Below, piece after piece: positions 7,686 through 54,847 of a stretch of DNA of 64,000 bases. The position numbers and the translations under genes were made by a program. Within the stretch, counting starts at the first letter, position 1. Every line of letters starts with the position of its first letter. The notes under the pieces were generated by a model, which was not told the DNA's origin, ran no database searches, and saw only the letters and a list, made by a program, of their open reading frames with translations. Location of the stretch: NCBI GenBank assembly GCA_902499925.1, contig GCA_902499925.1_4130.1. One strand, given 5' to 3'. This DNA is from Escherichia coli (GTDB lineage Bacteria; Pseudomonadota; Gammaproteobacteria; Enterobacterales; Enterobacteriaceae).

Positions 7686-7690
7686 TGGAT

Positions 7691-21063: not shown

Positions 21064-21074
21064 ATTGGTATTCC

Positions 21075-21257: not shown

Positions 21258-21396
21258 TAATGTTCTTCTCTTAAAAAACGCTTAATGGCACAATCTAAAT
21301 AAAAATCATAATACATCATATCTCGATTCTTAACCCATACACAATAATCTGCATTAATATTTCTTAATAATATATTCATATTATAATCTTCACTCC

Positions 21397-22003: not shown

Positions 22004-22031
22004 TTATATTGCATCTCCTTTAGGTATATTC

Positions 22032-22343: not shown

Positions 22344-22352
22344 ATTCTTCTC

Positions 22353-22921: not shown

Positions 22922-22990
22922 AATTTTTACCCTCTATTTGAACGCTCAAAAAGTACAGGTACTATAGCACTAAAGAAAAGTACTGTCAAG

Positions 22991-23356
22991 CTAGTATTGC
23001 ACTGTTCTAATGAAAGTACCTGAACTCATGGATTTAAGCTTATGAACCTCTTCCTGTATACCCTTGAGCAACTCTAAAGGCATTGGTACATCATGTACTA
23101 AGCTGTACTGAAAGTATTCTTCTTCAGATAAAGTACTAACATCTGGGACGCCAATTTTAGTTAGATAATCTTGATGTGTTGACCAATAAATTATATCTTC
23201 AGTACAATTGTACTCCCCATATACTGAACAATATTGATGAATATCTTTCCTGTACCCTTGAGCAATAAAGAACTTATCTACGGCATTAATAGAACTCACT
23301 TCGATTGTTACAGTACTTGAGCTTGTTTTTCCTTTATTATGCATATTAATCCCCAA
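22991..23356 (-). CDS. Family A paralog (short form)
   Basis: Motif 'EEEYFQYSLVHD'. Confidence 0.75.
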   Translation of the reverse strand: MGINMHNKGKTSSSTVTIEVSSINAVDKFFIAQGYRKDIHQYCSVYGEYNCTEDIIYWSTHQDYLTKIGVPDVSTLSEEEYFQYSLVHDVPMPLELLKGIQEEVHKLKSMSSGTFIRTVQY

Positions 23357-23532
23357 ATTAGATATCGAACACTATCAGCTTGATAGTTAGTTCCTACTGT
23401 GTGTTTTAATATTAACTCATCTTTCAGTACTGAACATTCTGCATTAGATATAGGAAGTGAATTAATTCTTTGAATTTCTGGTCGCAACATACCGCGAATC
23501 TTGCGATAATCTTCGTATGATAATCTTTTCAT
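23308..23532 (-). CDS. Family B paralog
   Basis: Motif 'VGTNYQAD'. Confidence 0.6.
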   Translation of the reverse strand: MKRLSYEDYRKIRGMLRPEIQRINSLPISNAECSVLKDELILKHTVGTNYQADSVRYLIWGLICIIKEKQAQVL

Positions 23533-23535
23533 GGT

Positions 23536-23880
23536 TTAATACTCAATAATGTGTTCTTCATAATCACCATTAGGCTCCTGTTTAGCTTCTTTCATTAGTA
23601 CTATCATCTTATGTACTAATGGCATAGGAAACTCTAAATCCCATACTAATGATTCCTGAAAGTATTCCTCTGGTGATAAAGTACTTAAATCTTTAATATC
23701 AACGTGCTTGTATATTTTATTTTCGTAATTAACAAATGATATATATAAATCATTAATATAAGAATCATACGTAATTGTGAATGGCTTACCCTTGTAGTCC
23801 ATTACATCTCTACATAGACTACTTTTGATATATATATGTTCATAGGATTTATATACCTTGAGTTGTATATTAGTTTTCAT
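23536..23880 (-). CDS. Family A paralog (short form)
   Basis: Motif 'PEEYFQESLVWD'. Confidence 0.75.
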   Translation of the reverse strand: MKTNIQLKVYKSYEHIYIKSSLCRDVMDYKGKPFTITYDSYINDLYISFVNYENKIYKHVDIKDLSTLSPEEYFQESLVWDLEFPMPLVHKMIVLMKEAKQEPNGDYEEHIIEY

Positions 23881-24121
23881 ATTTCTCTTTATTAGCTTGT
23901 TTGGTTTTATAGTGAATTAAATCTATTAATGTAATCAAGTACAACTTCAAAAAGTACTCTTGATGGTTCGTACCTAATGATACAAAGAACTTATGCTCAT
24001 AAATCAAAACCTGTTTCACTTCAAAGGGACACTTAATCCTCTGTATAGGTTTAAGTAAATGATAGTACTTATTAAATCTATGATACATTTCTAGTTCTGT
24101 CAGTACTTTCATATTAAACAA
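23870..24121 (-). CDS. Family B paralog (LGTNYQE-motif small protein)
   Basis: Motif 'LGTNHQEY'. Confidence 0.65.
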   Translation of the reverse strand: MFNMKVLTELEMYHRFNKYYHLLKPIQRIKCPFEVKQVLIYEHKFFVSLGTNHQEYFLKLYLITLIDLIHYKTKQANKEKYEN

Positions 24122-24335
24122 TCACTCCATTAGCTGTAGCATCACGTAAAGCTCTCAAATACTTCTGTACTGCTTGCTCTTGCTTATTTGTACCTAAAAG
24201 TATATACATCCATAATTCACTGTAATGTACATCTTGTGTATAAGGGTTGTTGTAACTTTTTGATAATATAGCATCAAATTCAGATGCATGAACCCTTGTG
24301 AACTTAAGAATATCTTGTTGTGTTATGATTCTCAT
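24114..24335 (-). CDS. Family B paralog
   Basis: Motif 'LGTNKQEQ'. Confidence 0.7.
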   Translation of the reverse strand: MRIITQQDILKFTRVHASEFDAILSKSYNNPYTQDVHYSELWMYILLGTNKQEQAVQKYLRALRDATANGVIV

Positions 24336-24547
24336 ATCTTTTCCTGTACTATCTGTATAAGAATCCCTATGTGTGAATTAACAGTTCTCTCTTGATGCTG
24401 TGTTCCTAAGAGTGTCAGTACTATCATCTCTGAACGCAAAAGATTTTTCTGAAGTTCACTTATATCAGTCCTCATATCAAGATTCAGAAATTCTTGACTA
24501 TTTTTTCTGAATAGTGCCAAGTACTCTTGATTTGATATTTCCTTCAT
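24332..24547 (-). CDS. Family B paralog
   Basis: Motif 'LGTQHQER'. Confidence 0.7.
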   Translation of the reverse strand: MKEISNQEYLALFRKNSQEFLNLDMRTDISELQKNLLRSEMIVLTLLGTQHQERTVNSHIGILIQIVQEKI

Positions 24548-24774
24548 AGTTTATCCCTGATGCCATTTAAAAGTGCTCTAATATGCTCCTGTACGAATTT
24601 GTACTGACTGTCTGTTCCTAGAGTGAGTAGCAATCTTAAATCTGAACTTTTGATGTGATATTCTAAATCATTATTTGATTCTTGCATCAGTTTCTTAAAG
24701 GATGAGAAGTTTGCAGCCATTAGTTCAATGTATTCTGCTGTTCCTAGTGGTTTGTGTATTGGCTGTTTGTGCAT
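24544..24774 (-). CDS. Family B paralog
   Basis: Motif 'LGTDSQYK'. Confidence 0.7.
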   Translation of the reverse strand: MHKQPIHKPLGTAEYIELMAANFSSFKKLMQESNNDLEYHIKSSDLRLLLTLGTDSQYKFVQEHIRALLNGIRDKL

Positions 24775-24986
24775 TTTAATTTTATTACCCTTTTGAGTGT
24801 ATTAATGTAATTATACACATTGGCTTCTTGATAGTTAGTTCCCAGTGTAGCTTGAACATAGATTTCATTTAACTTAATAATTTTATCAGTATCTGGTAGT
24901 TTTGATGTGTTAATGGCAAATAACTTCAAAAACAGTCCATTTAAGATTGTTAGGTATTCTTCGTCGGTAATGATTCGCATTTGCAT
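24744..24986 (-). CDS. Family B paralog
   Basis: Motif 'LGTNYQEA'. Confidence 0.7.
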   Translation of the reverse strand: MQMRIITDEEYLTILNGLFLKLFAINTSKLPDTDKIIKLNEIYVQATLGTNYQEANVYNYINTLKRVIKLKCTNSQYTNH

Positions 24987-25192
24987 TGGATAAACCTTTT
25001 TAGTTCTTTGATGTAATCATTAATATTGCATTCTTGATAGTTAGTCCCTAGGGTAGCTTGAACATAGATTTCACTCATTAGAATATTTTTTTCTTCATCA
25101 GGTAAATCTGTGGTCTTTGCTATATACAATTTTAGAATTAAACTACTTAATAGTTCGTGGTATTCACTTGGTGAAAGGATTTTCATTTGCAT
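24950..25192 (-). CDS. Family B paralog
   Basis: Motif 'LGTNYQEC'; near-duplicate of 24744..24986. Confidence 0.7.
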   Translation of the reverse strand: MQMKILSPSEYHELLSSLILKLYIAKTTDLPDEEKNILMSEIYVQATLGTNYQECNINDYIKELKRFIQCKCESLPTKNT

Positions 25193-25398
25193 GTTCTCAG
25201 TACAGATTCTTTAAGTTCATCGATGTAGTCCTCAACGAATTGCTCTTGGAAGTTAGTTCCAATATATAAAAGAACTCTTAAATCTGCTCTAAGTAACTCT
25301 TTTTCATCATCATCTATATCAGACAATGTTATGTTTAAGAATTTACTTGTATTAAAGATTAACAATTCTGTTTGTTCACTGTGGCTTAAAATTTTCAT
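25183..25398 (-). CDS. Family B paralog
   Basis: Motif 'IGTNFQEQ'. Confidence 0.7.
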   Translation of the reverse strand: MKILSHSEQTELLIFNTSKFLNITLSDIDDDEKELLRADLRVLLYIGTNFQEQFVEDYIDELKESVLRTCK

Positions 25399-25606
25399 AA
25401 TCTCTTTTTGCTTTCCTCGACAGTAGGTACAAATACGATTCTTCGTATTGTGCTTGGAAGTTTGTGTTTAAGAGTCGAAACAACTTCTGTTCTTCTAGAA
25501 CGAGTTGCTTATCTTCATAACAACGGTAGCGTATCAACTTTTTGTATTCGATGTTGATTACATCCATTACTATAAGCCCATGTTCATCATCTGTCAAGTG
25601 CTTCAT
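25376..25606 (-). CDS. Family B paralog
   Basis: Motif 'LNTNFQAQ'. Confidence 0.65.
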   Translation of the reverse strand: MKHLTDDEHGLIVMDVINIEYKKLIRYRCYEDKQLVLEEQKLFRLLNTNFQAQYEESYLYLLSRKAKRDYENFKPQ

Positions 25607-25845
25607 GCTTTTTTTCTTTTCCTGATGTGTTTAGTTAAAAGGTATATTAGTTTTCTGATGTATTCTTCCTGATAGTTTGTTCCTAATAGTGCAAGAAGTT
25701 TTGCTTCAACTAAAGCTAATTGACGTTCTTCAAATGTGTGTTCCAGTATGTACTTTGGGTTTGATTTTTTAGAAATTGCACTATTAGTTTTCATTACAAT
25801 CTTATGATATTCATTAACTGTTAGGATTTTTAAATTCTTGAGCAT
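25603..25845 (-). CDS. Family B paralog
   Basis: Motif 'LGTNYQEE'. Confidence 0.7.
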   Translation of the reverse strand: MLKNLKILTVNEYHKIVMKTNSAISKKSNPKYILEHTFEERQLALVEAKLLALLGTNYQEEYIRKLIYLLTKHIRKRKKA

Positions 25846-26071
25846 GTACCTTTTCCTTTATAGAGAATTTAAGATATCGAAGCATACTTTCAATGTAATA
25901 CTCTTGTCTGTCAGTTCCAAGAAAGTACAGGAGTTGAATGTATAAAACTTCTGCACTCCTTTCGGCATGTGACTTGTTTGTGTCGTTTGGAAGTTGATTT
26001 GTAAGTTTTCTGGATTTAATTAATCGTTCTTTTAACTCATCGTCTGTTAAGTATTTCATTTGCATTTGCAT
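25814..26071 (-). CDS. Family B paralog
   Basis: Motif 'LGTDRQEY'. Confidence 0.7.
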   Translation of the reverse strand: MQMQMKYLTDDELKERLIKSRKLTNQLPNDTNKSHAERSAEVLYIQLLYFLGTDRQEYYIESMLRYLKFSIKEKVHAQEFKNPNS

Positions 26072-26297
26072 TTACTTTTTCCTTAATAGTGATTTTAAGA
26101 TATCTAATCATACGTGCAACATATTCCTCTTGTCTATCAGTTCCCAGAAGATATGGTAGTGATTGGAATAATACTTCTGCACTCCTTTCTGCTGGGGTTT
26201 GGTTTAGGTCAATTGGACGTTTATTGGTATATCTCTTGGCACGAACTAATCTCTCGACGTATTCATTATAGGTTAAGTATATCATTTCATTTTGCAT
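26037..26297 (-). CDS. Family B paralog
   Basis: Motif 'LGTDRQEE'; near-duplicate of 25814..26071. Confidence 0.7.
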   Translation of the reverse strand: MQNEMIYLTYNEYVERLVRAKRYTNKRPIDLNQTPAERSAEVLFQSLPYLLGTDRQEEYVARMIRYLKITIKEKVNANANEILNRR

Positions 26298-26533
26298 TTA
26301 ATGTTTCTTACGTAAATTGTCTGGATTAAACAATCAATCCAAGTTTGAATATATTGGTTTTGATACTGTGTGCCTAAGAGACTCTGCATTTTAAACTCTG
26401 CTTCAAGTTCATATCTCTTTTCTATAGAAAAGCTCAAATGACCATATTCTTTATCGTATCTTCTCAGTGCTTCCCCAATTCTATCAAATCTTTCTGCTAA
26501 TCTGATGTTATTCACAATATTCATCGCATTCAT
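26282..26533 (-). CDS. Family B paralog
   Basis: Motif 'LGTQYQNQ'. Confidence 0.7.
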   Translation of the reverse strand: MNAMNIVNNIRLAERFDRIGEALRRYDKEYGHLSFSIEKRYELEAEFKMQSLLGTQYQNQYIQTWIDCLIQTIYVRNIKCKMK

Positions 26534-26808
26534 CGATCAGTACACCTCAGTGGTTGGGTCATTTGATGAAAGTACAGCTTACCTCTGATTTCCAGTAGTA
26601 ACTCCGCGATTAAGCGATTTACTTCTGTATCTTGATAGTTTGTTCCTAAGAATACACCCATCTTTAACTCACGCATCATAATCATTTTCTTACTGTGTTG
26701 AATTTCTGGGTTGTGATAGATTGTATTACGTTTGTGCGTAATTTTTGTCATACGCTCGGTATATTCATCTTTACTTAAATTAATCATTTTTATTCTCCAA
26801 AGCATCAC
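26530..26808 (-). CDS. Family B paralog (start probably at internal MINLSKDEY)
   Basis: Motif 'LGTNYQDT'. Confidence 0.65.
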   Translation of the reverse strand: MMLWRIKMINLSKDEYTERMTKITHKRNTIYHNPEIQHSKKMIMMRELKMGVFLGTNYQDTEVNRLIAELLLEIRGKLYFHQMTQPLRCTDR

Positions 26809-27019
26809 ATTTATTTTCGATACAAATCATTAGTTCTCTAAGATAGTTTTTTATCTTACCTTCCTGATGGTTCGTCCCCAGGAAGTTGCATAACTCTGCT
26901 TCTATTATTTTGATTCTTCTGGTGTCAGGTTTCAATTTTTTGTTATTGAAGATTTGAATCCTTATATCCCTTGATGCATTTAAACGTTTTTGATATTCAT
27001 GGAAAGATAAATTAATCAT
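26780..27019 (-). CDS. Family B paralog
   Basis: Motif 'LGTNHQEG'. Confidence 0.7.
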   Translation of the reverse strand: MINLSFHEYQKRLNASRDIRIQIFNNKKLKPDTRRIKIIEAELCNFLGTNHQEGKIKNYLRELMICIENKCDALENKND

Positions 27020-27234
27020 TTACTTTGTATCTCTCTCTTGAGGGCATCAATTAACAACAGTACAGCATTCTCTTGATAGTTTGTTCCTAAGACTGAAAGC
27101 ATCTTAATCTCATTTACTACAATCAACTTCTTTGAGCGTTCAATAATGTTACTATTATAAACGGCGTTACGTGCTGGATAAGTTTTTGCAAGACGAACAT
27201 AATATTCATCTTTACTTAAATTAATCATTTGCAT
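27016..27234 (-). CDS. Family B paralog
   Basis: Motif 'LGTNYQEN'. Confidence 0.7.
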   Translation of the reverse strand: MQMINLSKDEYYVRLAKTYPARNAVYNSNIIERSKKLIVVNEIKMLSVLGTNYQENAVLLLIDALKREIQSK

Positions 27235-27443
27235 TTACTTTGGATCTCCTTGACTAATGCATCAACCCACATGTCTATATACATTTGTTGATAGTTTGTC
27301 CCTATGAGTGCCCCTGCATAGAGTTCAGCTACCATTGCATGTTTTAGGTTGGCAGGGATGCTCTTATCAGATTGAATCTTTACTCTTCTGTTGGCACATG
27401 TTTTCAGAAGCTTAACATATTCGTAACCTATTAATTTTCTCAT
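27225..27443 (-). CDS. Family B paralog
   Basis: Motif 'IGTNYQQM'. Confidence 0.7.
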   Translation of the reverse strand: MRKLIGYEYVKLLKTCANRRVKIQSDKSIPANLKHAMVAELYAGALIGTNYQQMYIDMWVDALVKEIQSKCK

Positions 27444-27655
27444 TCTTTTGATATCACCTTGTTACGTAAGGCACTTAACAATACGTCAGTGTAGATGTTT
27501 TGATAGTTTGTTCCTACGAATACACCCAACTTCATTTCAGCTATTATAACACATTTGTCCTCTTGTGCAATAGACTTGTCTAAAGAAATACTAACAACTT
27601 TCCTTCTTATAGCTTGTAACCTCCAATGATACTGATACTCATTTAGGGTTATCAT
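27440..27655 (-). CDS. Family B paralog
   Basis: Motif 'VGTNYQNI'. Confidence 0.7.
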   Translation of the reverse strand: MITLNEYQYHWRLQAIRRKVVSISLDKSIAQEDKCVIIAEMKLGVFVGTNYQNIYTDVLLSALRNKVISKE

Positions 27656-27890
27656 TCTCTCGCCTCCATTTCTCGGTTCTAATGTGTTGACATTGTGCTT
27701 CGATGAACATATCTATTGATTTGGCAATTGCTTTTTTATCTGTGCCTGTCATCAGTACAAGCATCTCGGCCTCACAGTGAAGTAAACGCATGATATCATA
27801 GGGTAATATTCCAGATACCGTGTCATAGTGTTTCTGTGCCAGTGTCTGTAATAGTTTACAATACATTTTGTGATTTAGTCTGTGTCGCAT
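27639..27890 (-). CDS. Family B-like paralog (divergent)
   Basis: Divergent motif 'TGTDKKAI'; same size and position in array. Confidence 0.55.
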   Translation of the reverse strand: MRHRLNHKMYCKLLQTLAQKHYDTVSGILPYDIMRLLHCEAEMLVLMTGTDKKAIAKSIDMFIEAQCQHIRTEKWRRENDNPK

Positions 27891-28147
27891 TGTTTATTCC
27901 ATTCTTTTTTGGCCTTGATGGTTTTATATTGGATTTGGTTTCTTAATGCTGATAAGTATCGTTGAATGAACAGATCTTGATAGTTTGTTCCAATGAATTT
28001 CATCAGATAAAGTTCACCGTTGATAACATCCACTTCAGGTGCACCATATAAGGCATTGTTTTTTCTAAGGGTATGGATTAAAGAGAATAGGGCAGTTTGA
28101 TACTCAACTCCTGATAAAGTCTTCATGTTTTGTGAGCCAATAATCAT
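27875..28147 (-). CDS. Family B paralog
   Basis: Motif 'IGTNYQDL'. Confidence 0.7.
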   Translation of the reverse strand: MIIGSQNMKTLSGVEYQTALFSLIHTLRKNNALYGAPEVDVINGELYLMKFIGTNYQDLFIQRYLSALRNQIQYKTIKAKKEWNKQCDTD

Positions 28148-28361
28148 CTAGTTTATCCTGTATAACATTCATTAATTGTTCGACATATTCTGTGCAAAAC
28201 TTATCTTGATATTGAGTCCCCATAAAGTACAACAACCATAGCTCATTAACTTTAGCTCGCATTTGGTTCCATGTAAGGCTGGGGTCATCGTAGACTATCC
28301 TTGCTATAGGGGTTAGTTTACGGACTATAGTTTCATATTCATCTAGTGTTAAGTGTTTCAT
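28104..28361 (-). CDS. Family B paralog
   Basis: Motif 'MGTQYQDK'. Confidence 0.7.
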   Translation of the reverse strand: MKHLTLDEYETIVRKLTPIARIVYDDPSLTWNQMRAKVNELWLLYFMGTQYQDKFCTEYVEQLMNVIQDKLDDYWLTKHEDFIRS

Positions 28362-28576
28362 TTACATTTGTCCCTTATTAGATCAGTGAGGGCAACTATG
28401 TGTGCAACAACATACTCTTCCTGAAAGTTCGTCCCCAGTACAGCCATCATGCGTATATCGGTGGTGTTTATCCTGTGTTCCCTTACACATAAACCTTCTG
28501 TGTGAGGAAGTGTAAAATATTTGTTTATTGCAGCAACGATAATTTTATTCTTCTCGGAGTTACTTAAATGTTTCAT
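28358..28576 (-). CDS. Family B paralog
   Basis: Motif 'LGTNFQEE'. Confidence 0.7.
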   Translation of the reverse strand: MKHLSNSEKNKIIVAAINKYFTLPHTEGLCVREHRINTTDIRMMAVLGTNFQEEYVVAHIVALTDLIRDKCK

Positions 28577-28785
28577 AGTTTGCTCTTAATGTATTTCTGG
28601 AGTGCAATTATATACTCATTCAAGAAATGCTCCTGATAGTCTGTGCCGAGGAATGCACCCAATAGTATATCATTTTCCAATACTAATGCTAAGTTTAAAT
28701 CATCAGTCTCTTCATATACTATGAGAATTTCAAGTTGTCTGGCAGCGACGCGTTCGGTATATAGATTTGAGTTAATGCTATTCAT
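28573..28785 (-). CDS. Family B paralog
   Basis: Motif 'LGTDYQEH'. Confidence 0.7.
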   Translation of the reverse strand: MNSINSNLYTERVAARQLEILIVYEETDDLNLALVLENDILLGAFLGTDYQEHFLNEYIIALQKYIKSKL

Positions 28786-28994
28786 AGTTTACTCTTAATG
28801 TAATTCTGGAGTGCAATTAAGTATTCCCCTACATAATACACCTGAAAGTCTGTATCCAAAAATGCACCCATAAGTAAATCTTTTTCTAATACCCTTGATA
28901 AGTTAAGGTCTGCATTTGAAAGGTATATAAGTAAGATTTCACCCTGTGCGGAATTGAAACGTTTCTTATATTCTTCTGGTGTTAAAAAAATCAT
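28782..28994 (-). CDS. Family B paralog
   Basis: Motif 'LDTDFQVY'; near-duplicate of 28573..28785. Confidence 0.65.
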   Translation of the reverse strand: MIFLTPEEYKKRFNSAQGEILLIYLSNADLNLSRVLEKDLLMGAFLDTDFQVYYVGEYLIALQNYIKSKL

Positions 28995-29200
28995 AGTTTC
29001 CTCTTAATATCTTCTATTAAAAATCGAATCCAATCGTCAACATACTCTTCCTGATGGTTTGTGTTCAGTACAGCCAACATGCGGATCTCTGCTCTTGCAA
29101 CTTCAATTGCAGTTTTAGGAAGGTCTTTTCTGATATCCAACATTAAGTCCATGTATCTCAAGATAAGACCGTATGATTGGGTTCGTGTTATAGTTTTCAT
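28991..29200 (-). CDS. Family B paralog
   Basis: Motif 'LNTNHQEE'. Confidence 0.65.
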   Translation of the reverse strand: MKTITRTQSYGLILRYMDLMLDIRKDLPKTAIEVARAEIRMLAVLNTNHQEEYVDDWIRFLIEDIKRKL

Positions 29201-29397
29201 TGTTTCCTCGTGGATAATATTTCATTTTTCAATGCATCCATATATTGAATCACCCATCTTCCCTGATAGCTTGTTCCCAATGTAATCAAAAGGTATAACT
29301 CAATTCGTTCTAAGTTTGTGTCTGTGTTATAAATCTTTACCATGTTTTTACGTAACAGTTCTTGATAATCTTCTTTATTTAAAATACGCATTTTCAT
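29197..29397 (-). CDS. Family B paralog
   Basis: Motif 'LGTSYQGR'. Confidence 0.65.
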   Translation of the reverse strand: MKMRILNKEDYQELLRKNMVKIYNTDTNLERIELYLLITLGTSYQGRWVIQYMDALKNEILSTRKQ

Positions 29398-29591
29398 AGT
29401 CTACCTTTTATGTCCCTTCGTAATTCTTGTAAGTATAGTTCGATATACTTTTCTTGATAGTTAGTTCCTATGAAAAGTTTCATAACCAATTCACGCTTAT
29501 ATGCAATACCACGGATATGTGACATATGTAGGATATATGCCATGTTGGATATGAGTGTGTGGTTGTGCTCTTCTTGAGTTAAAATACGCAT
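29394..29591 (-). CDS. Family B paralog, first gene of array
   Basis: Motif 'IGTNYQEK'; start moved to MRILTQEE preceded by GGAG (track ORF to 29621). Confidence 0.7.
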   Translation of the reverse strand: MRILTQEEHNHTLISNMAYILHMSHIRGIAYKRELVMKLFIGTNYQEKYIELYLQELRRDIKGRL

Positions 29592-29619
29592 AGGGACTCC
29601 ATTAAAAATAATATCAATC

Positions 29620-29650
29620 ATATAATATACAATTCATATAAAAAGTCAAT
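29620..29650 (-). promoter_or_regulatory. Candidate sigma70-like promoter reading into family B array
   Basis: Minus-strand TTGACT, ~17-nt spacer, TATTAT/ATTATA just upstream of gene start 29591; approximate. Confidence 0.35.
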
Positions 29651-29840
29651 AACATTTTATTAGTAATACCCCTTTATCGAAGTCGCTAAGGTTACCCGCC
29701 CTTTAGCCCCCTACGCATTTTGCCATAGTCCAATCCCTTTTTATTCATAAAAGTCAAGGGATTACCTATGCATTTTTTTAACGCTGAAATTTAAAAATGC
29801 CTTGACTTTTTTATGATTCAGTACTAAATCCTTTTACGCA

Positions 29841-48282: not shown

Positions 48283-48645
48283 TTATTTGTAAATTTTGCC
48301 ACTGTCAGCCCATACCAGGAAACGATGCATATTATCCCATGCATCTTGTTTTAAATTTAAACCGTGCAATTCCTCAGTAGTTGCCATCCCTGGTACTGGC
48401 TTACTACACACCGCGAAATTTTCTCCCATGTACTGATAAACCATCGTTAAATCATTTGAGATCATTACATGGATCATTGAATCAAGCATCAAAGTAGCGG
48501 CGTATTGTTCACGCTTAAGCGGCAACATTGCAATAAGTTCCCGATAAGCTGCAATGTGAATTTTTACAGTTTCAGCCGGAAGACCTTTCATCTCTTCACG
48601 GAAGTTAACCAGGTTAAGCATGATTTTATTGATTTGAGTCGCCAT
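48283..48645 (-). CDS. Hypothetical protein
   Basis: Start at MATQINKIML; leader palindrome GCGGGAA-gtg-TTCCCGC. Confidence 0.7.
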   Translation of the reverse strand: MATQINKIMLNLVNFREEMKGLPAETVKIHIAAYRELIAMLPLKREQYAATLMLDSMIHVMISNDLTMVYQYMGENFAVCSKPVPGMATTEELHGLNLKQDAWDNMHRFLVWADSGKIYK

Positions 48646-49008
48646 CGTTTTAATCTCTCTTAATGTGTAGCGGGAAGTGTTCCCGCTCTCGATGTAAAAC
48701 ATTATACGCTTTTATCAGTACGGTGCAAGTACTTTCTACAAATACTTTTAAAATAGTTTTCTTTCTATATAGGGGAACTATTATTCAGTACTGCAACCAT
48801 CCAGGGGAACTATCTTTCTATATAGTAGTACTATCATTCAGTACTGAATCAATCCACCAAATCATCCCGATACCCCGTAAAACGGCCTCAGACGCATTCT
48901 AACGCATTAATACACCTAAGCTATACATTTGCACCATTCCAATCATTCCAGGGCTTTACTGGCCGTTTAAACGCGTTAAATTATTTTCAATTATTTTGTT
49001 TTTAGCTA

Positions 49009-49036
49009 TTGACTCAGTACTAAAAAAGCGTATAAT
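49009..49036 (+). promoter_or_regulatory. Plus-strand promoter (TTGACT-N17-TATAAT) in noncoding region
   Basis: Followed by TACTACATAGA...GAGAAAG...GATCCGTCC leader resembling the unit at 44936. Confidence 0.45.
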
Positions 49037-49474
49037 TACTACATAGACGCGAGAAAGCGGATACCCCAGGGGGTGGGAAGATCCGTCCAAAATTCATAAA
49101 ATTTAAAAAGGATACACTCCCGCACCCTAGCAGGTCAAAGCACTTTCTCAGTACTGAAATATAGTACCATAGTCCGGCCCAGGATAGCAAGCAAATTAAT
49201 TAAAACTTTTTGCTTCCAGGGTATTGCTTTATTTTTCCAGTACTGTATAATAGTTCCATCAAGTCGAGAAAGACTCAAGCCCACCGGGTGCATAGTTACG
49301 CCCAAAATTCAGTACTGAAAAAATTTTTAAAAATATCCGTCCAGGCCGTTGACATTGCCCCCAGTTTATAAGATAATGATTCCAGATTCAGAAAAATCTA
49401 ACTCCAGATACTGCGGGGAAACTATCCCCACGCGGTAGGGGAACTATTGGAAAAAACAAAATAAAATTTTGATT

Positions 49475-49620
49475 TAGCCGTCTATACTTCCAGACGTGTA
49501 ACCATCTAGCCGTTTAGCCGTCCAAACGTCTAGCCATCCAGCCATCCAGAAATCTAGCCGTTTAGCCGTCTAGATGGATAGCCATCTTTACTTCCAGACT
49601 TCTGGAGGGCTAGACATATC
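49475..49620. repeat. Cluster of short direct repeats (TAGCCGT / CCATCCAG / TCTAGCC), iteron-like
   Basis: About ten TAGCC(G/A)T-type units within ~150 bp in ORF-free region. Confidence 0.6.
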
Positions 49621-50289
49621 TACGTCCAAAATCCATCCAGGGTAACTACGCCCAAAATCCGTCAGTACTATACCATAGATCTATCTTTTGAAAGGGAGTA
49701 TTCAGTACTGCCATCATAGCCCTCACTATGTTACCCTAGGAGGATGAAGACTATCATGTAGTACTGAATACTGTTAGAGGGAATCCACCAGCTTGTGCTG
49801 GTGGCATAATGCTTTAGATTAAAATCAGTACTGATACCATTCTGTTAATACCAGTACTGTTATTACGATTTTCATATGAGGTTCAAAAAGATGTACCACC
49901 ACAGGAGGAACTATCTTTTCTGTACTGTCTCACGACAGGAGGTAGAGTAAATGAATTGTTCGCAGCAACTCATCTCTCTATGTAGAACATTATACAGTAC
50001 TGAATCATAATGTCAATAACTTTCTTTCACCATTCAGTACTGATATTCTTGAGAACTACCCGACTACAAACATCATTATATCCCACAAATCATAAACGTC
50101 CCAACGTAAATTTCAACTTTCGAAGATCCAACTTTTATTTCATAGGTACTCCAAAATTTTTAGGATCGAGATTTAGGATGGAGTACTAACCAACTTTTTG
50201 CTGGAGCCTCAAGGGGTAATGGAATTTTACCCCGAAGGGTAAAGGGGTAATTGAAATTAAGGTGAAAGTAATAATTCAGTACTAATCAT

Positions 50290-50560
50290 TGCGTGATTAC
50301 TTTTGATTACATTTGATGTAATTTGCAAAATGGAAAAGGAGCTTGGAAACTACAAAGTACGGCAGACTTCCTCTGCCTACTTAGTGGCATATCGACACCT
50401 TCAGTACTGAATACTTTTGGGGCAGTACTGAATCCTTCCCTAGCATTCTTGAGTAATCTTGTCTATAATAATCAGTACTGAATCATATATAATCATTCTG
50501 TGATTCTACGGTGCTCATATAAATGTTTATATATGATTACTTATGACTACATATGATTAC
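50290..50560. repeat. Repeated TGATTAC-type heptamers
   Basis: GTGATTAC...TGATTAC...TGATGTAAT and ATGATTAC...TGACTAC...ATGATTAC read directly. Confidence 0.45.
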
Positions 50561-50683
50561 GGGGTTTAGCCTGGGGAGAATCCTAGTGATCGCATTTGTC
50601 CAGGCTGAATTTTAACATATATAACATATGTTAAAGCCTGTCCAATGCTTTCCCTGCGGAGCTTCCCCTGTCTATATGTTGAA

Positions 50684-50890
50684 TTACTTCCTATATATAA
50701 GCATTAACATATAGTAGTACTGATTATGCTGTACATTCTCTTTAATATTATAAGGGTCTATAGCAATCTCGGTACATCTGTTAAATGCATATCTATTAAA
50801 TGCCAGTACTATTATAGATCTAATCCATGCTTGGTCAGTCGGTGGTAGTTTACTTATATAGTACTCTTTATAATTTTTTATGTTCTGCAT
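50684..50890 (-). CDS. Family C paralog (small protein, N-terminal KEYY...KL motif)
   Basis: MQNIKNYKEYYISKL...YYYMLMLIYRK. Confidence 0.65.
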   Translation of the reverse strand: MQNIKNYKEYYISKLPPTDQAWIRSIIVLAFNRYAFNRCTEIAIDPYNIKENVQHNQYYYMLMLIYRK

Positions 50891-50901
50891 AGTATACCTT
50901 A

Positions 50902-51093
50902 TTATTTCAAAGTACCATATAGTACTCTTAATAGGAAGTAGTACGTATTAGAAATATCATTACTAGTTAAAACAATCTTTGTACACATATTAAATTCGTA
51001 TTGAGTCATTGCCAGGGGGATTAAATTGTTAACCCATGCTTGTTCGTTTTCTTTGAGTTTACTTATATAGAAATCTTTATGTTCTTTATTCAT
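50902..51093 (-). CDS. Family C paralog
   Basis: MNKEHKDFYISKL... Confidence 0.65.
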   Translation of the reverse strand: MNKEHKDFYISKLKENEQAWVNNLIPLAMTQYEFNMCTKIVLTSNDISNTYYFLLRVLYGTLK

Positions 51094-51295
51094 ATAGGAA
51101 TAGTATACCTATGATGCCGGAGTACATATTAGTACTGTTATTATTGGCGTTTGCGTTTAAAGTCATTTGAATACAATTATTGTAGCATACTCTGCCGAAA
51201 TATGTATCAGTACTTAAAGGTGCTGTAGTCCTTAGAAACATTTGTTCTGTGGGGCTGAGGTGTTTGGAATAGAATTCTTTATGTTCTTTATTCAT
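51086..51295 (-). CDS. Family C paralog
   Basis: MNKEHKEFYSKHLSPTEQMFL... Confidence 0.65.
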   Translation of the reverse strand: MNKEHKEFYSKHLSPTEQMFLRTTAPLSTDTYFGRVCYNNCIQMTLNANANNNSTNMYSGIIGILFLYE

Positions 51296-51300
51296 ATTAG

Positions 51301-51486
51301 TTAGTGTCTGTATATAAGTAATAGTAAGAATACGTACTGCACCTGTTCATCTTTAGTATTGAGTACTGTACGTATTGCGTCATGGAACAAGAATATAGTA
51401 CTTGGGTCATTAGAATTTAAGGGGTTTACGGGGACGGCGTGTTTGTAGTTCCCTTTAACAAATTGTATATAGTATTCTCTATGCAT
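51301..51486 (-). CDS. Family C paralog
   Basis: MHREYYIQFV...VFLLLLIYRH. Confidence 0.6.
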   Translation of the reverse strand: MHREYYIQFVKGNYKHAVPVNPLNSNDPSTIFLFHDAIRTVLNTKDEQVQYVFLLLLIYRH

Positions 51487-51487
51487 A

Positions 51488-51676
51488 TCAGTACCTATAT
51501 ATTAGGGCGAGAATGTAGTACAGTTTATATGTATTATAATCTGGGTTGATAGCACATAGTGTGTGGTAGTGGAATTGTTTGGTATTTTTCTTATCCTTGA
51601 TATCTATTGGGTTTAGTGGTATAAGCATTTGGGAGTTTAGTTCCAGATGGTTTAAGTAGAATTCTTTGTTATTCAT
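51488..51676 (-). CDS. Family C paralog
   Basis: MNNKEFYLNHL...YYILALIYRY. Confidence 0.65.
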   Translation of the reverse strand: MNNKEFYLNHLELNSQMLIPLNPIDIKDKKNTKQFHYHTLCAINPDYNTYKLYYILALIYRY

Positions 51677-51875
51677 AGAAGAATATTAGTCCCATTACGC
51701 CTGAGTATTGAATATTTTTGTTATTGTTTTCTAAAGCTTCTAGAGTAATACGTATACAATTATTAAAGCAATCTCTGGCGTGTGGTGTATCTAAACTTAA
51801 AGGTGATACACTCCTTAGAAACATTTGTTCTGATGCACTGAGGTGTTTGGTGTAAAATTCTTTCTGTTCGTTCAT
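51669..51875 (-). CDS. Family C paralog
   Basis: MNEQKEFYTKHLSASEQMFL...; close paralog of 51086..51295. Confidence 0.65.
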   Translation of the reverse strand: MNEQKEFYTKHLSASEQMFLRSVSPLSLDTPHARDCFNNCIRITLEALENNNKNIQYSGVMGLIFFYE

Positions 51876-51885
51876 ATTGGCCTCT

Positions 51886-52074
51886 TTAGTACACGAAAGC
51901 TAGGTACAGTGTATGATACAGTACTCGATGATAGCTATCAAAATCTAGTATACATGCTTTAGTGCACATAGTAAAGTACACTTTATCGTTTTGAGCATTG
52001 ATACCGCGAGGTTTATCTAATAGATTAGTACTGAGGTACATTGGGAAATATTTTGTGTAGTATTCTTTATGCAT
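51886..52074 (-). CDS. Family C paralog
   Basis: Start at MHKEYYTKYF (track ORF to 52119). Confidence 0.6.
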   Translation of the reverse strand: MHKEYYTKYFPMYLSTNLLDKPRGINAQNDKVYFTMCTKACILDFDSYHRVLYHTLYLAFVY

Positions 52075-52075
52075 A

Positions 52076-52258
52076 TTAGTACCTGAATATAAGTAGGATA
52101 GTGTTATATAATTGGTCATAACTACTACTATTTTCTATACTTCGTTCTATGCAGTTATTGAATCCCAGTACTGCCAAATCGTTATCCAGGGGGACTTTGT
52201 ATCTGGCGTAGTGTTCAAAAATGCTGGGGAGAAATTGTGTGTAGTATTCTTTGTGCAT
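52076..52258 (-). CDS. Family C paralog
   Basis: MHKEYYTQFL... Confidence 0.65.
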   Translation of the reverse strand: MHKEYYTQFLPSIFEHYARYKVPLDNDLAVLGFNNCIERSIENSSSYDQLYNTILLIFRY

Positions 52259-52259
52259 A

Positions 52260-52451
52260 TTAGTACTTATATATTAGTAAAAGGATGTGATACAGTACTC
52301 GATTATAGTCTTCAATATATATCGAGGATTTAGTGCACTGAATGAAGTAGTCTTTTTCGTAGTTTTTTTCTATACCCAATGGTTCTGTTGGTAGAAGGTG
52401 TTGGAGATACATTGGGAGTTTCTCTATGTAGTATTCTTTGTGGTTATTCAT
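52260..52451 (-). CDS. Family C paralog
   Basis: MNNHKEYYIEKL... Confidence 0.65.
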   Translation of the reverse strand: MNNHKEYYIEKLPMYLQHLLPTEPLGIEKNYEKDYFIQCTKSSIYIEDYNRVLYHILLLIYKY

Positions 52452-52459
52452 ATTATGTG

Positions 52460-52633
52460 TTATTTCGTGAAAACAAGGGTTAGTACTGCATAGTACAAGT
52501 CATACGTATCTTTAGGGTTAATAGCACCTTTAATACATTCTTTCATTACTTCATTATAGATAATTTTAGTACTGAATGTATTGGATGTTACTATATCGGA
52601 ATTAAGGTACGAGAGGTAGAATTCTTTATACAT
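52460..52633 (-). CDS. Family C paralog
   Basis: Start at MYKEFYLSYL (track ORF to 52696). Confidence 0.6.
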   Translation of the reverse strand: MYKEFYLSYLNSDIVTSNTFSTKIIYNEVMKECIKGAINPKDTYDLYYAVLTLVFTK

Positions 52634-53285
52634 AGTTTGAAATATACGTAATGAGGTGATGAAATTTCTTATCAGTACTGATAAGTTCCTGTACATGTTT
52701 TGTTAGTTTGTACGCGTTTTTATAGAGTCCTGGATTATCGATTACAGTACTGTACATGAATTCTTCTTCCTCGGATAATTCTTTGTGTTCTAGTTCTTTG
52801 AGGAATTGCAGTACTGTATCAGTTTCGTTAGTACGTTGCTTTTGGAAGAAGTGCATGTTATCGTGTATTTTTTCTGAACCCATGCAGTACATATCGCCGA
52901 TTTGGAATTGTGCAGTACTGATATCATGGGTGCTATTACAATTCCCGAAGAAGTATACATTCCCGAAAGATAGAATTATAGTGCACGGGATATTATCCAT
53001 GTGTATATAGATAGATGCATTCTTTAGTGCTTTTGTGCTGGTATTAGTACTCAATACTTTTAAATCAGTATTATAGATATTAATAAAAGCAAGAGCTATA
53101 TTATTTTTCTTCAAGTACGATTTGAGGTTCTTAGATACGAGAACATTTCTGGATTTTTTCTTTTTATTTCGTTTCTTTAGTACACACGGGTCGTAAGTAT
53201 ATGCTGGTGTAAAAGATTCTGCTTGAATACTGTTGAGGTATTTAAAGTGCTTAAGGTATTGTTTGCTGTGTGCATTAAGTTTCAT
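52626..53285 (-). CDS. Family A-like protein embedded in family C array
   Basis: 219-aa ORF with 'SEEEEFMYSTVIDNPG'. Confidence 0.65.
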   Translation of the reverse strand: MKLNAHSKQYLKHFKYLNSIQAESFTPAYTYDPCVLKKRNKKKKSRNVLVSKNLKSYLKKNNIALAFINIYNTDLKVLSTNTSTKALKNASIYIHMDNIPCTIILSFGNVYFFGNCNSTHDISTAQFQIGDMYCMGSEKIHDNMHFFQKQRTNETDTVLQFLKELEHKELSEEEEFMYSTVIDNPGLYKNAYKLTKHVQELISTDKKFHHLITYISNYV

Positions 53286-53294
53286 TTGGTTTCC

Positions 53295-53474
53295 TTTATA
53301 CAGATGCGAGAGCGAGGATTTCCCTGAAGGGATTATCTTTTGTTAGTGCGTGATGAATGCAGCTATTGAGATTAATATTTTTAGTACTGTTAGTTGCCAG
53401 GTTGTAGTACTTCACGAAGGTGTCGTACATGAAACGGTCTTTAATGCTTATGTGTTCTATATAGTATTCTTGCA
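53295..53474 (-). CDS. Family C paralog (~59 aa), not in ORF track
   Basis: Translation MQEYYIEHISIKDRFMYDTFVKYYNLATN...; coordinates approximate. Confidence 0.45.
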
Positions 53475-53483
53475 TATTATTCC

Positions 53484-53672
53484 TTACATAGAGATGAGTT
53501 TCAGTACATCAATATACATATAACGTTCAGATGACAGTACACGGGTAGTGATAATCTCAATCGATATATTTTTAATTCCATGTGCAGATGATTGATGGTG
53601 CTGAATAAATGAGTTGTGCATACTTTGTTCTATGTGGTTTAGTTTATTGAAGTAGTACTCAAAAGTGTTCAT
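53484..53672 (-). CDS. Family C paralog
   Basis: MNTFEYYFNKL...YIDVLKLISM. Confidence 0.65.
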   Translation of the reverse strand: MNTFEYYFNKLNHIEQSMHNSFIQHHQSSAHGIKNISIEIITTRVLSSERYMYIDVLKLISM

Positions 53673-53679
53673 GTCTACC

Positions 53680-53859
53680 TTAGATTGAGATTAGTTTAAG
53701 TACTTCTCTGTACGTGTACTTTTCGTTTTGTGCTTCTACTGTACATGATAGTAGGTATCGTTTTTTATCTCTTTTGTTCCCGACTGTGTAGTACCTTTGG
53801 AATTTATTATAGTTGTATCTATCTTTGTGCTGGAGGTTATAGATATAGAATTCTTGCAT
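53680..53859 (-). CDS. Family C paralog (~59 aa), not in ORF track
   Basis: Translation MQEFYIYNLQHKDRYNYNKFQRYY...YTYREVLKLISI; coordinates approximate. Confidence 0.45.
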   Translation of the reverse strand: MQEFYIYNLQHKDRYNYNKFQRYYTVGNKRDKKRYLLSCTVEAQNEKYTYREVLKLISI

Positions 53860-53867
53860 AGAGTACC

Positions 53868-54053
53868 TTAGATTGCTATCAGTTTGAGTACTTCAATATA
53901 TGTGCGGTACTCTGCTTTAATTAAATTTGTACACACTGTAAGGGAATTTCTTTGTATAAGTTTATTGCCGCTTTTATACGCATTTCTCCACACATAGAGA
54001 TGAGATCTTTCAGGCATAGATAGTTTATTTGTATAGTACTCAAATGTATTCAT
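53868..54053 (-). CDS. Family C paralog
   Basis: MNTFEYYTNKL...YIEVLKLIAI. Confidence 0.65.
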   Translation of the reverse strand: MNTFEYYTNKLSMPERSHLYVWRNAYKSGNKLIQRNSLTVCTNLIKAEYRTYIEVLKLIAI

Positions 54054-54061
54054 ATATTACC

Positions 54062-54265
54062 TCAAATAGAGATTAGTTTAAGTACTTCTCTGTATGTGTA
54101 CTTTTCGTTTTGTGCATCTCTTGTGCTTGTATATAGGTATCCTCGACGATATTTGTTGCTCCCGTTCTTGTAGTTGAATTCGAACTTATTGTAGATGAAT
54201 CTATCGCCAGGCTGTAATTTACTTAAGTACAATTCAATGCTCATAGTATTCTCTTTACATATCAA
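54062..54265 (-). CDS. Family C paralog
   Basis: ...MSIELYLSKL...YTYREVLKLISI. Confidence 0.65.
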   Translation of the reverse strand: MICKENTMSIELYLSKLQPGDRFIYNKFEFNYKNGSNKYRRGYLYTSTRDAQNEKYTYREVLKLISI

Positions 54266-54440
54266 TAAGTTTCAGTACTGCTCTGTACGTGTACTTAGTT
54301 GTTAGTGCTTCTTTTATAGCAATACAGAAGTAATGTTGTTTGTCTCTTATACTACCGCGTTTGTAGTACCATACATTGGAGTTGTGGGTGTACTTGTCCC
54401 TGTCGGATAGATTTTGGTAATAGTATAATATATGATTCAT
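54255..54440 (-). CDS. Family C paralog
   Basis: MNHILYYYQNL...YTYRAVLKLIDM. Confidence 0.65.
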   Translation of the reverse strand: MNHILYYYQNLSDRDKYTHNSNVWYYKRGSIRDKQHYFCIAIKEALTTKYTYRAVLKLIDM

Positions 54441-54649
54441 GGTAATGTAATTAGCCTTACTATATTAAAGTACTCGGTCCCTGGTACACCTTGTAGAATA
54501 TTATCAACTACATTTTCTTGGTGCAGGATTAATACATTCGGTGCGGTTCTTTTAAGGTTTTTTAAAGTACTGTATTCTTGTTTAAGGATGAACTGTACAT
54601 CTTTAGGGAGAATATCTAAGTAGTACTGGTGTATGTTCATAGTTTTCAT
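54437..54649 (-). CDS. Family C paralog
   Basis: MKTMNIHQYYLDIL... Confidence 0.6.
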   Translation of the reverse strand: MKTMNIHQYYLDILPKDVQFILKQEYSTLKNLKRTAPNVLILHQENVVDNILQGVPGTEYFNIVRLITLP

Positions 54650-54660
54650 ATAGTACTCTT

Positions 54661-54846
54661 TTAGAACTTAAAGATGAGGTTCATGATAGATAAGTACTTA
54701 GTTTCAGGAAATTGATGTTCTATTGCATAACGTGTCTCCAGTCTGAAGTCAAATTTATAAAAGGGACTATTCATATCCATAGGTTCATTGGGAAATGAAT
54801 CTCTGTATTGTTTGTGCAGCTTACTACAGTAGAATTCTTTATACAT
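54661..54846 (-). CDS. Family C paralog
   Basis: MYKEFYCSKL... Confidence 0.6.
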   Translation of the reverse strand: MYKEFYCSKLHKQYRDSFPNEPMDMNSPFYKFDFRLETRYAIEHQFPETKYLSIMNLIFKF

Positions 54847-54847
54847 A

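Follow-up and report, generated by a model that had tools for sequence, protein, structure and literature searches.

A gene-free gap at the terminal-repeat boundary of an Asteriusvirus jumbo coliphage, probably a genome-end control region

A gene-free gap conserved among jumbo phages

A stretch of 64,000 nucleotides deposited as Escherichia coli DNA (NCBI GenBank assembly GCA_902499925.1, contig GCA_902499925.1_4130.1; hereafter the window, by which we mean the whole stretch) contains a gap of about 2 kb, 48646-50683, that an earlier note made from the sequence alone had picked out as a candidate replication origin or packaging/regulatory hub. The window comes from an Asteriusvirus, that is, a PBECO4/121Q-like jumbo coliphage: megablast with 48400-51000 gave identities of 97.5% to Ecwhy_1, 97.2% to fEgEco12 and 93% to phAPEC6, and matched 44 phage records, 34 of them at a query coverage of at least 80%. 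The relatives so matched are jumbo phages of ~350 kb from E. coli, Salmonella or Erwinia and belong in or near the genus Asteriusvirus. All annotated relatives leave the interval blank or fill it with inconsistent calls of tiny open reading frames (ORFs), and a gap of 1.5-2.1 kb occupies the syntenic position in RaK2 and phiKp_21, Klebsiella phages that are more distantly related. The features that we recognise in and around the gap are as follows (window coordinates; strand where one applies).

29689-50381: direct terminal repeat (DTR) of 20,693 bp, the G+C-richer block, by homology to fEgEco12
48701-48856, minus strand: promoter of the first DTR gene (TTGCAC-16-TATAAT, 48701-48728; gene ATG at 48645) and a tandem unit
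49009-49165, plus strand: outward unit 1, with promoter 49009-49036 (11/12), followed by a block that other genera share; candidate small RNA
49224-49312, plus strand: outward unit 2, TTGCTT-16-TG-TATAAT (49224-49251, extended -10), a short unit closing in ACGCCCAAAATTC
49349-49464, plus strand: outward unit 3, with promoter 49349-49377, leader hairpin 49409-49437, Shine-Dalgarno-like AGGGGA and mini-ORF 49447-49464
49476-49627: 8-bp array of 19 in-frame units, e.g. AGCCGTCT, AAACGTCT and AGCCATCC, with a strict 8-bp period
49785-49804, both strands: back-to-back Chi pair, CCACCAGC-ttgt-GCTGGTGG, exact octamers
49989-50016, minus strand: inward sigma-70 promoter, TTGACA-16-TATAAT, 12/12 consensus, 366-393 bp from the genome end
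50075-50381: near-invariant terminal ~300 bp of the DTR, candidate pac-like terminase recognition segment
50361-50392: predicted genome end and putative terminase cut site, cut at 50381|50382, with a hairpin and ACT|TAGTGGCATAT
50534-50560: second TGATTAC group (repeat family D5), on the unique side, ~155-180 bp past the cut

The gene flanking the gap on the left most likely begins at 48645 and is annotated with 120 amino acids (aa) in phAPEC6, 121Q and PBECO4. That the gap holds no ORF of 60 aa or more, as had been claimed, is nearly right: the exception is a 79-aa plus-strand ORF (48663-48902) that crosses the left edge, where indels are frequent among relatives and a 53-bp unit varies in copy number.

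Might the gap nevertheless conceal small protein-coding genes that gene callers overlooked? ORFs of 30-99 aa are annotated at the gap in several relatives, and two 19-codon ORFs at ~49892-50009 are preceded by good Shine-Dalgarno sequences. However, annotation disagrees between near-identical genomes, and even between both DTR copies of fEgEco12, the indels among relatives are non-triplet (+5, +1, +8, +7), and repeat copy number is variable, so that we consider hidden genes very improbable. The individual candidates (the 79-aa ORF at the left edge, a 59-aa ORF at 50010-50189, the two 19-codon ORFs and g614 of fEgEco12) were rejected as genes because of inconsistent annotation and non-triplet indels. 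ARAGORN returned no tRNA genes, and Rfam returned no family at gathering thresholds, with just chance-level eukaryotic matches at E up to 5.

The gap spans the end of a long direct terminal repeat

The gap consists of the last 1.7 kb of the DTR plus ~300 bp of unique DNA, and in replicating DNA it is the concatemer junction, at which the ~20.7-kb DTR adjoins unique sequence. The G+C-richer block that the earlier note saw to the left of the gap is the DTR itself; GC content climbs near 30 kb. The anchor comes from fEgEco12, a linear genome of 374,733 bp with direct terminal repeats of 20,993 bp, established with PhageTerm and confirmed by restriction digests (PMC13070987). Position 1 of fEgEco12 corresponds to window position 50381 (reverse strand) and its position 20,993 to 29689, and the record of vB_Ec-M-J (annotated DTR 21,525 bp) begins at the reverse complement of 50381, exactly as fEgEco12 does. 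Because both begin at that base, we assign the genome end to 50381|50382; the position of the virion DNA end is thus a prediction, transferred by near-identity to relatives whose ends have been mapped. The DTR implied in the window compares with 20,668-21,525 bp in relatives, the lower figure being that of Sharanji by PhageTerm (PMC11895373). The packaging/regulatory hub of the earlier note is accordingly supported, by the mapped virion end of these two close relatives together with the conserved promoters on both strands described below. Where the end lies is already published for close relatives and is the known part of the story; what appears to be undescribed is the internal anatomy of the region, the Chi-loaded DTR, the conserved leader and, above all, the MetJ-box-like arrays common to the ends of three unrelated phage groups.

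At the cut itself, a hairpin (GGCAGA-cttcc-TCTGCC, 50361-50377) is followed by ACT|TAGTGGCATAT, with the 11-mer TAGTGGCATAT on the unique side; the predicted terminal sequence at the 50381 end would be AGTAGGCAGAGG... The motif ACT|TAGTGGCATAT is kept in all Asteriusvirus relatives and in RaK2 and phiKp_21, while its flanks differ and the sequence of the preceding hairpin differs between both groups. Conservation was profiled in an alignment of 11 Asteriusvirus genomes with an overall divergence of 3-15%. Against that background, 50075-50381 shows 0-6 mismatches per 25 nt (summed over the 10 relatives), and divergence starts abruptly a few bases past the cut, at a 37-nt indel. The last ~300 bp of the DTR and the 11-mer just outside are, in fact, the most conserved sequences of the region.

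Both repeat families that had been described here were found. GGGTAA is present at 50214, 50227 (minus strand), 50237 and 50245, as part of GGGGTAA inverted and direct repeats (50213-50250), and TGATTAC at 50294, 50304, 50534 and 50554. The GGGGTAA repeats and the doublet TGATTAC-N3-TGATTAC (50294-50310) lie inside the cut, so that the two TGATTAC groups flank the cut site on both sides; the second falls in a conserved island (50525-50600) amid variable DNA. GGGGTAAT repeats recur ~100 bp inside the RaK2 junction. From this pattern of conservation we infer that 50075-50381 and ACT|TAGTGGCATAT together may form the site at which terminase recognises and cuts the DNA.

Some smaller observations concern the same sequences. 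The 37-nt segment just outside the 11-mer (50394-50430) is missing in six relatives, and the 10-bp TGATTACTTT unit (50294-50310), present in two copies here, has three in vB_Ec-M-J. The other DTR boundary, 29688|29689, falls within a 220-bp intergenic gap (29622-29840) with promoter-like sequences; a GGGTAA motif 3-8 bp inside that repeat end (GGGCGGGTAACCT|) echoes the GGGGTAA repeats near the 50381 end.

Chi sites are concentrated in the terminal repeat and oriented towards its ends

The earlier note had listed a perfect 8-bp hairpin. It is present, a few bases from where it had been placed, and consists of two E. coli Chi sites that do not vary among the 11 relatives and lie 580-600 bp from the genome end. 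Its 4-nt spacer (49793-49796) reads TTGT or ACAA depending on the relative, that is, the loop is inverted while the arms are identical.

The pair is part of a wider accumulation. The window contains 12 Chi sites where 0.36 are expected, 11 of them inside the DTR (0.2 expected), each in a different flanking context. None of the other octamers in the set of 168 with this base composition is as frequent in the DTR as Chi, the runner-up having four copies, and the other 43 kb of the window hold a single further site (56824).

31050, 31273, 32852, 34259, 36608, 37856, 39317, 43309, 43372, 49785, 49797: Chi sites in the DTR

Nine of these sites, on the minus strand, face the 29689 end (the strand ending 3' there), the first of them 1.36 kb in, and two are counted towards the 50381 end. 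The plus-strand site at 49797 faces the 50381 end, 585 bp in, and is oriented correctly for RecBCD entering there. In such an orientation, Chi attenuates the degradation of linear DNA by RecBCD and loads RecA, and protection of linear DNA by Chi was reportedly described by Dabert and colleagues in 1992. The sites thus resemble known Chi sites in the exact octamer GCTGGTGG, the correct orientation towards both DNA ends and the strong over-representation, and they would protect the ends of the phage DNA from RecBCD. We know of no description of an inverted Chi pair with 4-bp spacing, nor of Chi concentrated in a phage terminal repeat.

Conserved promoters and a structured leader

Promoter-like matches as such are not elevated in the region (9 versus 9.9 in shuffled sequence). 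The consensus promoters reported on both strands are nevertheless there, at 49009-49036, 49224-49251 and 49349-49377 on the plus strand and at 49989-50016 on the minus strand, and all four sigma-70 promoters have hexamers that are invariant among the 11 relatives and spacers that diverge. In 121Q, for instance, the 49349 promoter has an unrelated spacer between unchanged hexamers. Invariant hexamers around divergent spacers are the pattern expected of working promoters. The minus-strand promoter would be the outermost early promoter.

The three plus-strand promoters point outward. Around the first two, the block 49030-49251 is ~70% identical in RaK2, K64-1, RCIP0023 and phiKp_21, putative pairing segments in the conserved block after the 49009 promoter are invariant between genera, and the unit at 49224 is a paralogue of that at 49009. 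The third unit has a fixed order of parts, namely promoter, hairpin, GG(A/T)AGGGGA(A/G)CTA(A/T)TGGAA, A-rich spacer and 8-bp array, that is kept across four Rak2-like genera and three uncultivated contigs. Its leader hairpin comprises 10 pairs, which are 100% paired in 12/12 sequences with compensatory changes in five pairs, and a U.G to G.U swap fits the plus strand only. The covariation score is 0.433 as against 0.107 in shuffles (0/500 reach it), and slid controls are at most 64% paired. The conserved motif that follows combines a Shine-Dalgarno sequence, a start codon (ATG; TTG in Asteriusvirus) and GAA, and opens mini-ORFs of 3-14 codons; here the mini-ORF (UUG GAA AAA ACA AAA UAA) runs into the 8-bp array. 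The leader is a structured element, presumably transcribed, without a counterpart in Rfam.

Two further repeat families accompany the promoters. The (C/T)-variable repeats of the earlier note correspond to GGG(G/A)AACTAT at 48772, 48804, 49416 and 49438, within a few bases of where they had been placed, and CCAAAATYC occurs at 49087, 49302, 49626 and 49652, four of its five copies in the window. All three outward promoter units finish with the longer form ACG(T/C)CCAAAAT(T/C)C, possibly a signal for 3'-end formation or processing, and in GAP32, CBB and Serratia BF the array is succeeded by a related ACACCCAAAATTCAG. At the left edge, the 53-bp tandem unit (48760-48856, family D13), of which relatives have from one to at least three copies, bears AGTACTGAATAATAGTTCCCC promoter-like motifs.

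An 8-bp array that scores as tandem MetJ boxes

The array itself had been described as about ten iteron-like TAGCC(G/A)T repeats interleaved with a second motif. The second motif, CCATCCAG, is indeed found, in the only four copies in 64 kb; TAGCC(G/A)T is present too, although in seven copies (49475-49579) and not in ten. The term iteron-like did not survive: these are rather 8-bp periodic units that score as tandem MetJ boxes and are common to the ends of unrelated phages with terminal repeats.

Boxes were scored with the half-metbox position weight matrix of Augustus & Spicer 2011 (PMC3228920), at thresholds of 3.145 per box and 12.58 per site, a site being defined as at least two contiguous 8-bp boxes that each reach at least 1/4 of the consensus score and together at least the consensus score. 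The box threshold, which 1% of all 8-mers pass, is passed by 14 consecutive units (49476-49587), which together reach 102.8 bits or eight times what a site requires. This is the sole qualifying MetJ-like site in the 64 kb; the next best has two boxes and 10.5 bits, under the site threshold. Pooling 184 phage boxes (104 Rak2-like and 80 T5-like), we find agreement with the MetJ matrix at positions 1, 2, 4, 6, 7 and 8, the exceptions being C at position 3 in about half of the units and A at position 5.

The array thus resembles MetJ operators (consensus AGACGTCT) in its contiguous, spacer-free 8-bp units, in the run of consecutive boxes above a published threshold, in base preferences at 6/8 positions and in that the hosts of the phages concerned belong to MetJ-bearing orders. 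It differs from them in scale and setting as well as at position 3: a site in the chromosome comprises only a few boxes in a row (two or more), whereas phage arrays have 14-36 boxes and stand beside genome ends. Chromosomal MetJ sites have ~2-5 boxes and lie at met gene promoters. On the strength of the matrix scores, the host's MetJ may bind the array. In the literature searched, with subscription-only papers outside its scope, no paper links metboxes or MetJ to phage genome ends.

There are two other scenarios for what the array does. One is that it is bound by a phage protein, either of the ribbon-helix-helix type found at plasmid centromeres or the small terminase subunit, and serves packaging or genome positioning. 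Ribbon-helix-helix centromere-binding proteins bind arrays of 7-11-bp repeats, the phage units are asymmetric (with an AGCC half-site), and the arrays lie <1 kb from DTR ends in all three phage groups that have them. If so, one would have to explain why the same unit occurs in phages with unrelated terminases and gene sets whose hosts are all of MetJ-bearing orders, and why several T5-like contigs carry near-perfect metboxes (AGACGTCT, GGACGTCT, AAACGTCT). Moreover, tblastn with an unreferenced E. coli MetJ sequence as query gave no significant match in the window or in the compared loci (the window covers 64 kb of a ~350-kb genome), and no similar array turned up in 72,556 plasmids, so that the link to plasmid centromeres gained no match. 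We consider a phage protein an unlikely partner.

The second scenario is that the array acts as RNA, either as a loading site for Rho, which would terminate outward transcripts short of the DNA end under the control of mini-ORF translation, or as a sponge for an RNA-binding protein. It would account for the conserved promoter, the hairpin with strand-specific G.U pairs and the Shine-Dalgarno sequence and mini-ORF directly before the array in four Rak2-like genera, for the C-rich, G-poor plus strand of the array and for the shared 3' motif after it. However, the arrays of PGT2 and the T5-like phages have nothing comparable to this promoter and leader ahead of them, PR1 has its array turned round with respect to the boundary, and an 8-nt period is no known requirement of Rho sites; an RNA role would, in addition, leave room for binding at the DNA level. 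An RNA role strikes us as no better a bet than a phage protein.

Arrays lie close to the ends of unrelated phages

Arrays of the same kind occur in other Rak2-like phages, in T5-like phages and in a T7-like phage, with the following numbers of boxes.

JNE01, Asteriusvirus: 14 boxes
GAP32 and CBB, Mimasvirus: 7+4+2 boxes
Yen9-04, Eneladusvirus: 9 boxes
PGT2, T7-like: 9 boxes
Vibrio phage Pontus, T5-like: 15 boxes
Aeromonas phage AhSzq-1, T5-like: 28 boxes

Uncultivated contigs also bear them, and some of their units are the near-perfect metboxes just mentioned. A blast search with the Aeromonas array matched 90 phage records, 89 of them from phages of Enterobacterales, Vibrionales or Aeromonadales, which are three of the five gammaproteobacterial orders to which MetJ is confined. 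Records that open at a defined end all have the array nearby, and overall its distance to record or DTR ends is 40-900 bp.

This phage: 755-905 bp
vB_Ec-M-J, CRJP21 and ELP-22: 808-916 bp
CBB: 679-809 bp
Serratia BF and Erwinia relatives: 671-792 bp
PGT2: 43-114 bp (left end)
Vibrio Thalassavirus records: 12-600 bp

The T5-like Providencia phage PR1 (NC_041913, 8124-11191) is of particular use for comparison. Its left terminal repeat is annotated at 1-10,461, the array lies 770-837 bp from the inner end, a Chi site stands on each strand between boundary and array, and paired DnaA boxes lie beyond. The order boundary, Chi(-), Chi(+), array is the order seen here, which suggests, as far as order and spacing can, a shared end module. 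A conserved polarity of the array relative to the end was dropped as a candidate feature, PR1 having the opposite orientation.

RaK2 has other repeats at the position of the array: its gap (3060-3600) carries AAATGAGAATCATTATCATT repeats, which we take to resemble the Fur box consensus, and shares an exact 23-nt stretch with Repeat Region 3 of T5, where the partner lies in the palindrome/DRC repeats (AY587007, 9460-9640). Matches to Fur boxes in the region studied here are at background level only, one of them at 13/19.

Two side observations come from this survey. Uncultivated viral contigs hold longer, near-perfect 8-bp arrays, often exactly at contig ends; IMGVR_UViG_3300031658_004036 (7257-7544), for instance, has 36 units of AGATGTCT/AGATGTCC totalling 356 bits. 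A CBB blast match at 20838-20880 was discarded as the counterpart of the gap, being non-syntenic; the true CBB counterpart lies 679-844 from the start of the record.

Is the gap a replication origin?

For the other half of the earlier proposal, a replication origin, we find no specific support: there are no DnaA boxes (0 matches to TTWTNCACA in 48649-50683) and no initiator-type iterons of 17-22 bp beside an initiator gene, and the hairpin is a Chi pair. An origin might still be of the T4 R-loop type, with RNA from the outward promoters persisting in an A+T-rich unwinding element downstream and priming the leading strand, or of the iteron type. An A-rich spacer (GGAAAAAACAAAATAAAATTTTGA) comes after strong conserved promoters, replication genes of T4 type are known from Rak2-like phages (CBB paper), and cumulative GC skew reaches its minimum, with a change of sign, at ~50.2-51 kb despite minus-strand genes on both sides as far as 55.3 kb. 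To that extent the gap is like oriF and oriG of T4, which also combine a promoter with an A+T-rich stretch, whereas the promoters here are of sigma-70 consensus rather than middle-mode type and the element keeps to the genome end even among unrelated phages.

What, then, of the skew? It flips at the DTR boundary, some 4-5 kb short of the switch in gene orientation (55.4 kb), because the tightly packed minus-strand genes of 60-78 aa at 50684-55300 have a C-rich coding strand (GC skew at codon position 1 of -0.03, compared with +0.33 in neighbouring genes). Since the sign change coincides with both the DTR boundary and the onset of these compositionally atypical small genes, it is no usable sign of an origin. 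Furthermore, the supposed iterons are the MetJ-box-like units that also occur at T5-like and T7-like ends, where replication systems are unrelated, and the equivalent region of T5 is no origin, the origins of T5 lying near the centre of the genome (Davison, 10.1101/866236). We therefore regard an origin as quite unlikely, though less so than hidden genes.

A model of the genome end

Putting cut site, Chi, promoters, leader and MetJ-box-like array together, we read the gap as the control region of the Asteriusvirus genome end, with a probability of roughly 70%. Imagine the DNA passing through one infection. Terminase would recognise the invariant terminal segment and the flanking TGATTAC and GGGGTAA repeats and cut at ACT|TAGTGGCATAT. 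After infection, RecBCD would attack the linear ends, and the oriented Chi sites would turn degradation into RecA loading; RecBCD so switched would protect the genome and favour recombination from repeat to repeat, that is, formation of circles or concatemers. The inward consensus promoter, 366-393 bp inside the end, would be where host RNA polymerase initiates the early transcripts. The array, finally, would bind host MetJ together with S-adenosylmethionine (SAM) cooperatively and act as a roadblock or anchor near the end, as a sink for the repressor after replication, or as both.

The closest described analogue is Repeat Region 3 of T5 (annotated by Wang et al. 2005, AY587007), which is untranslated, dense in repeats and 1.2 kb long, extends 270 bp past the left terminal repeat and has been proposed to hold the injection stop signal (Davison, 10.1101/866236). 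Like it, the gap is of kilobase scale, untranslated, packed with direct and inverted repeats, better conserved than the adjacent ORFs and placed across the boundary between terminal repeat and unique DNA (here 1.7 kb with an overrun of ~300 bp), with the neighbouring genes of the repeat transcribed away from it. The exact 23-nt repeat common to T5 and the gap of RaK2 adds to the likeness, as does the T5-like phage PR1, which has boundary, Chi pair and array in the same order at almost equal distances. On the other hand, the gap has neither DnaA boxes nor the IRD'/IRC' inverted repeats and, because DnaA boxes are missing, fails one defining feature of Davison's element. T5 itself lacks the 8-bp array, and Chi in Repeat Region 3, and as a member of the Demerecviridae it is unrelated to a jumbo myovirus. 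Unlike for T5, no two-step DNA transfer is known to us for Rak2-like phages.

A second comparison is with the left end and concatemer junction of T7, which, in work attributed to Dunn and Studier (1983), Molineux, and Zhang and Studier, are said to have short-repeat arrays beside the terminal repeat and early promoters a few hundred bp from the entering end. Shared with the gap are a repeat boundary flanked by short-repeat arrays, strong host-type early promoters near the end and transcription across the junction, and the T7-like PGT2 has the same kind of 8-bp array near its left end. The differences are a repeat of 160 bp as opposed to 20.7 kb, unrelated short repeats (of the CCTAAAG type) and a junction-crossing polymerase that is the phage's own enzyme.

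More broadly, and tentatively, the boundaries of fixed DTRs in phages of MetJ-bearing gammaproteobacteria (Rak2-like jumbo myoviruses, T5-like siphoviruses and a T7-like podovirus) may carry, within <~1 kb, a portable end module of host-protein operator arrays, often beside oriented Chi, that recruits host repressors to the entering or packaged end and, through MetJ-SAM, ties that end to the methylation-cofactor status of the cell; we hold this to be possible, if on balance doubtful. Long runs of MetJ boxes would in such a module be interchangeable with Fur-box-like or DnaA-box repeats, and the module would serve to obstruct or place RecBCD, polymerases or the machinery of DNA transfer, or else to drain repressor and so derepress the supply of methionine and SAM.

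Several points weigh against these interpretations. The terminus is carried over to this isolate by homology. Two features of the locus are left unexplained by the model, namely the three strong promoters aimed at the DNA end and the change in sign of GC skew at the boundary. As for the array, its units depart from metboxes, with C at position 3 in 57% of units compared with 10% in operators, and they are asymmetric (C at position 3 in 57%, G at position 6 in 6%) whereas MetJ is a symmetric dimer with the box AGAC|GTCT, even if several T5-like arrays are near-perfect. This asymmetry is the main argument against MetJ binding. Nor is the module uniform across phages: RaK2 and T5 lack the 8-bp array and have other repeats in its place, Chi near the end was not seen in CBB, Serratia BF or PGT2, the reversed array of PR1 means that no single polar mechanism fits all, and one array-bearing Rak2-like phage was isolated on Xanthomonas.

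An unannotated gap lies at the same spot in hundreds of jumbo and T5-like phage genomes and is currently regarded as empty. Its anatomy offers testable answers to how phages with long terminal repeats are cut, how their linear ends survive RecBCD and where early transcription starts. If MetJ does bind, a virus would have placed the operator array of a metabolic repressor at the end of its own DNA, linking infection to SAM and methionine status, which would be relevant to SAM-dependent restriction and defence. In practical terms, the cut-site motif and the position of the array allow ends to be assigned in many deposited genomes with arbitrary start points.

Minor observations

In Ecwhy_1, WPEC5, EC.P1 and WPEC3, the matches to the 2.6-kb query 48400-51000 are spread over ~3.4-3.5 kb in 2-3 pieces, as if these phages had an additional ~0.8 kb, or else a paralogous join, on the left side of the gap.

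The palindrome AGTACT, with 284 copies in the window, exceeds its expected number (21.5) 13-fold. Its density in the gap, to which the earlier note had drawn attention, is real but not specific to the gap (10.1/kb compared with 10.9/kb in other intergenic DNA), and we discarded it as a region-specific signal for that reason. A SlmA-like site was considered as well; the flanks (TTCAGTACTGAA) differ from what we take to be the SlmA consensus. With the consensus tTCAGTACTGa, the hexamer occurs at 10.9/kb in intergenic and 3.3/kb in coding DNA and has no copies at 15-22 kb and 25-29 kb. Examples lie at 48728-50474 and in the small-gene arrays at 50.7-55 kb. The hexamer often abuts a -10 element (AGTACTGTATAAT).

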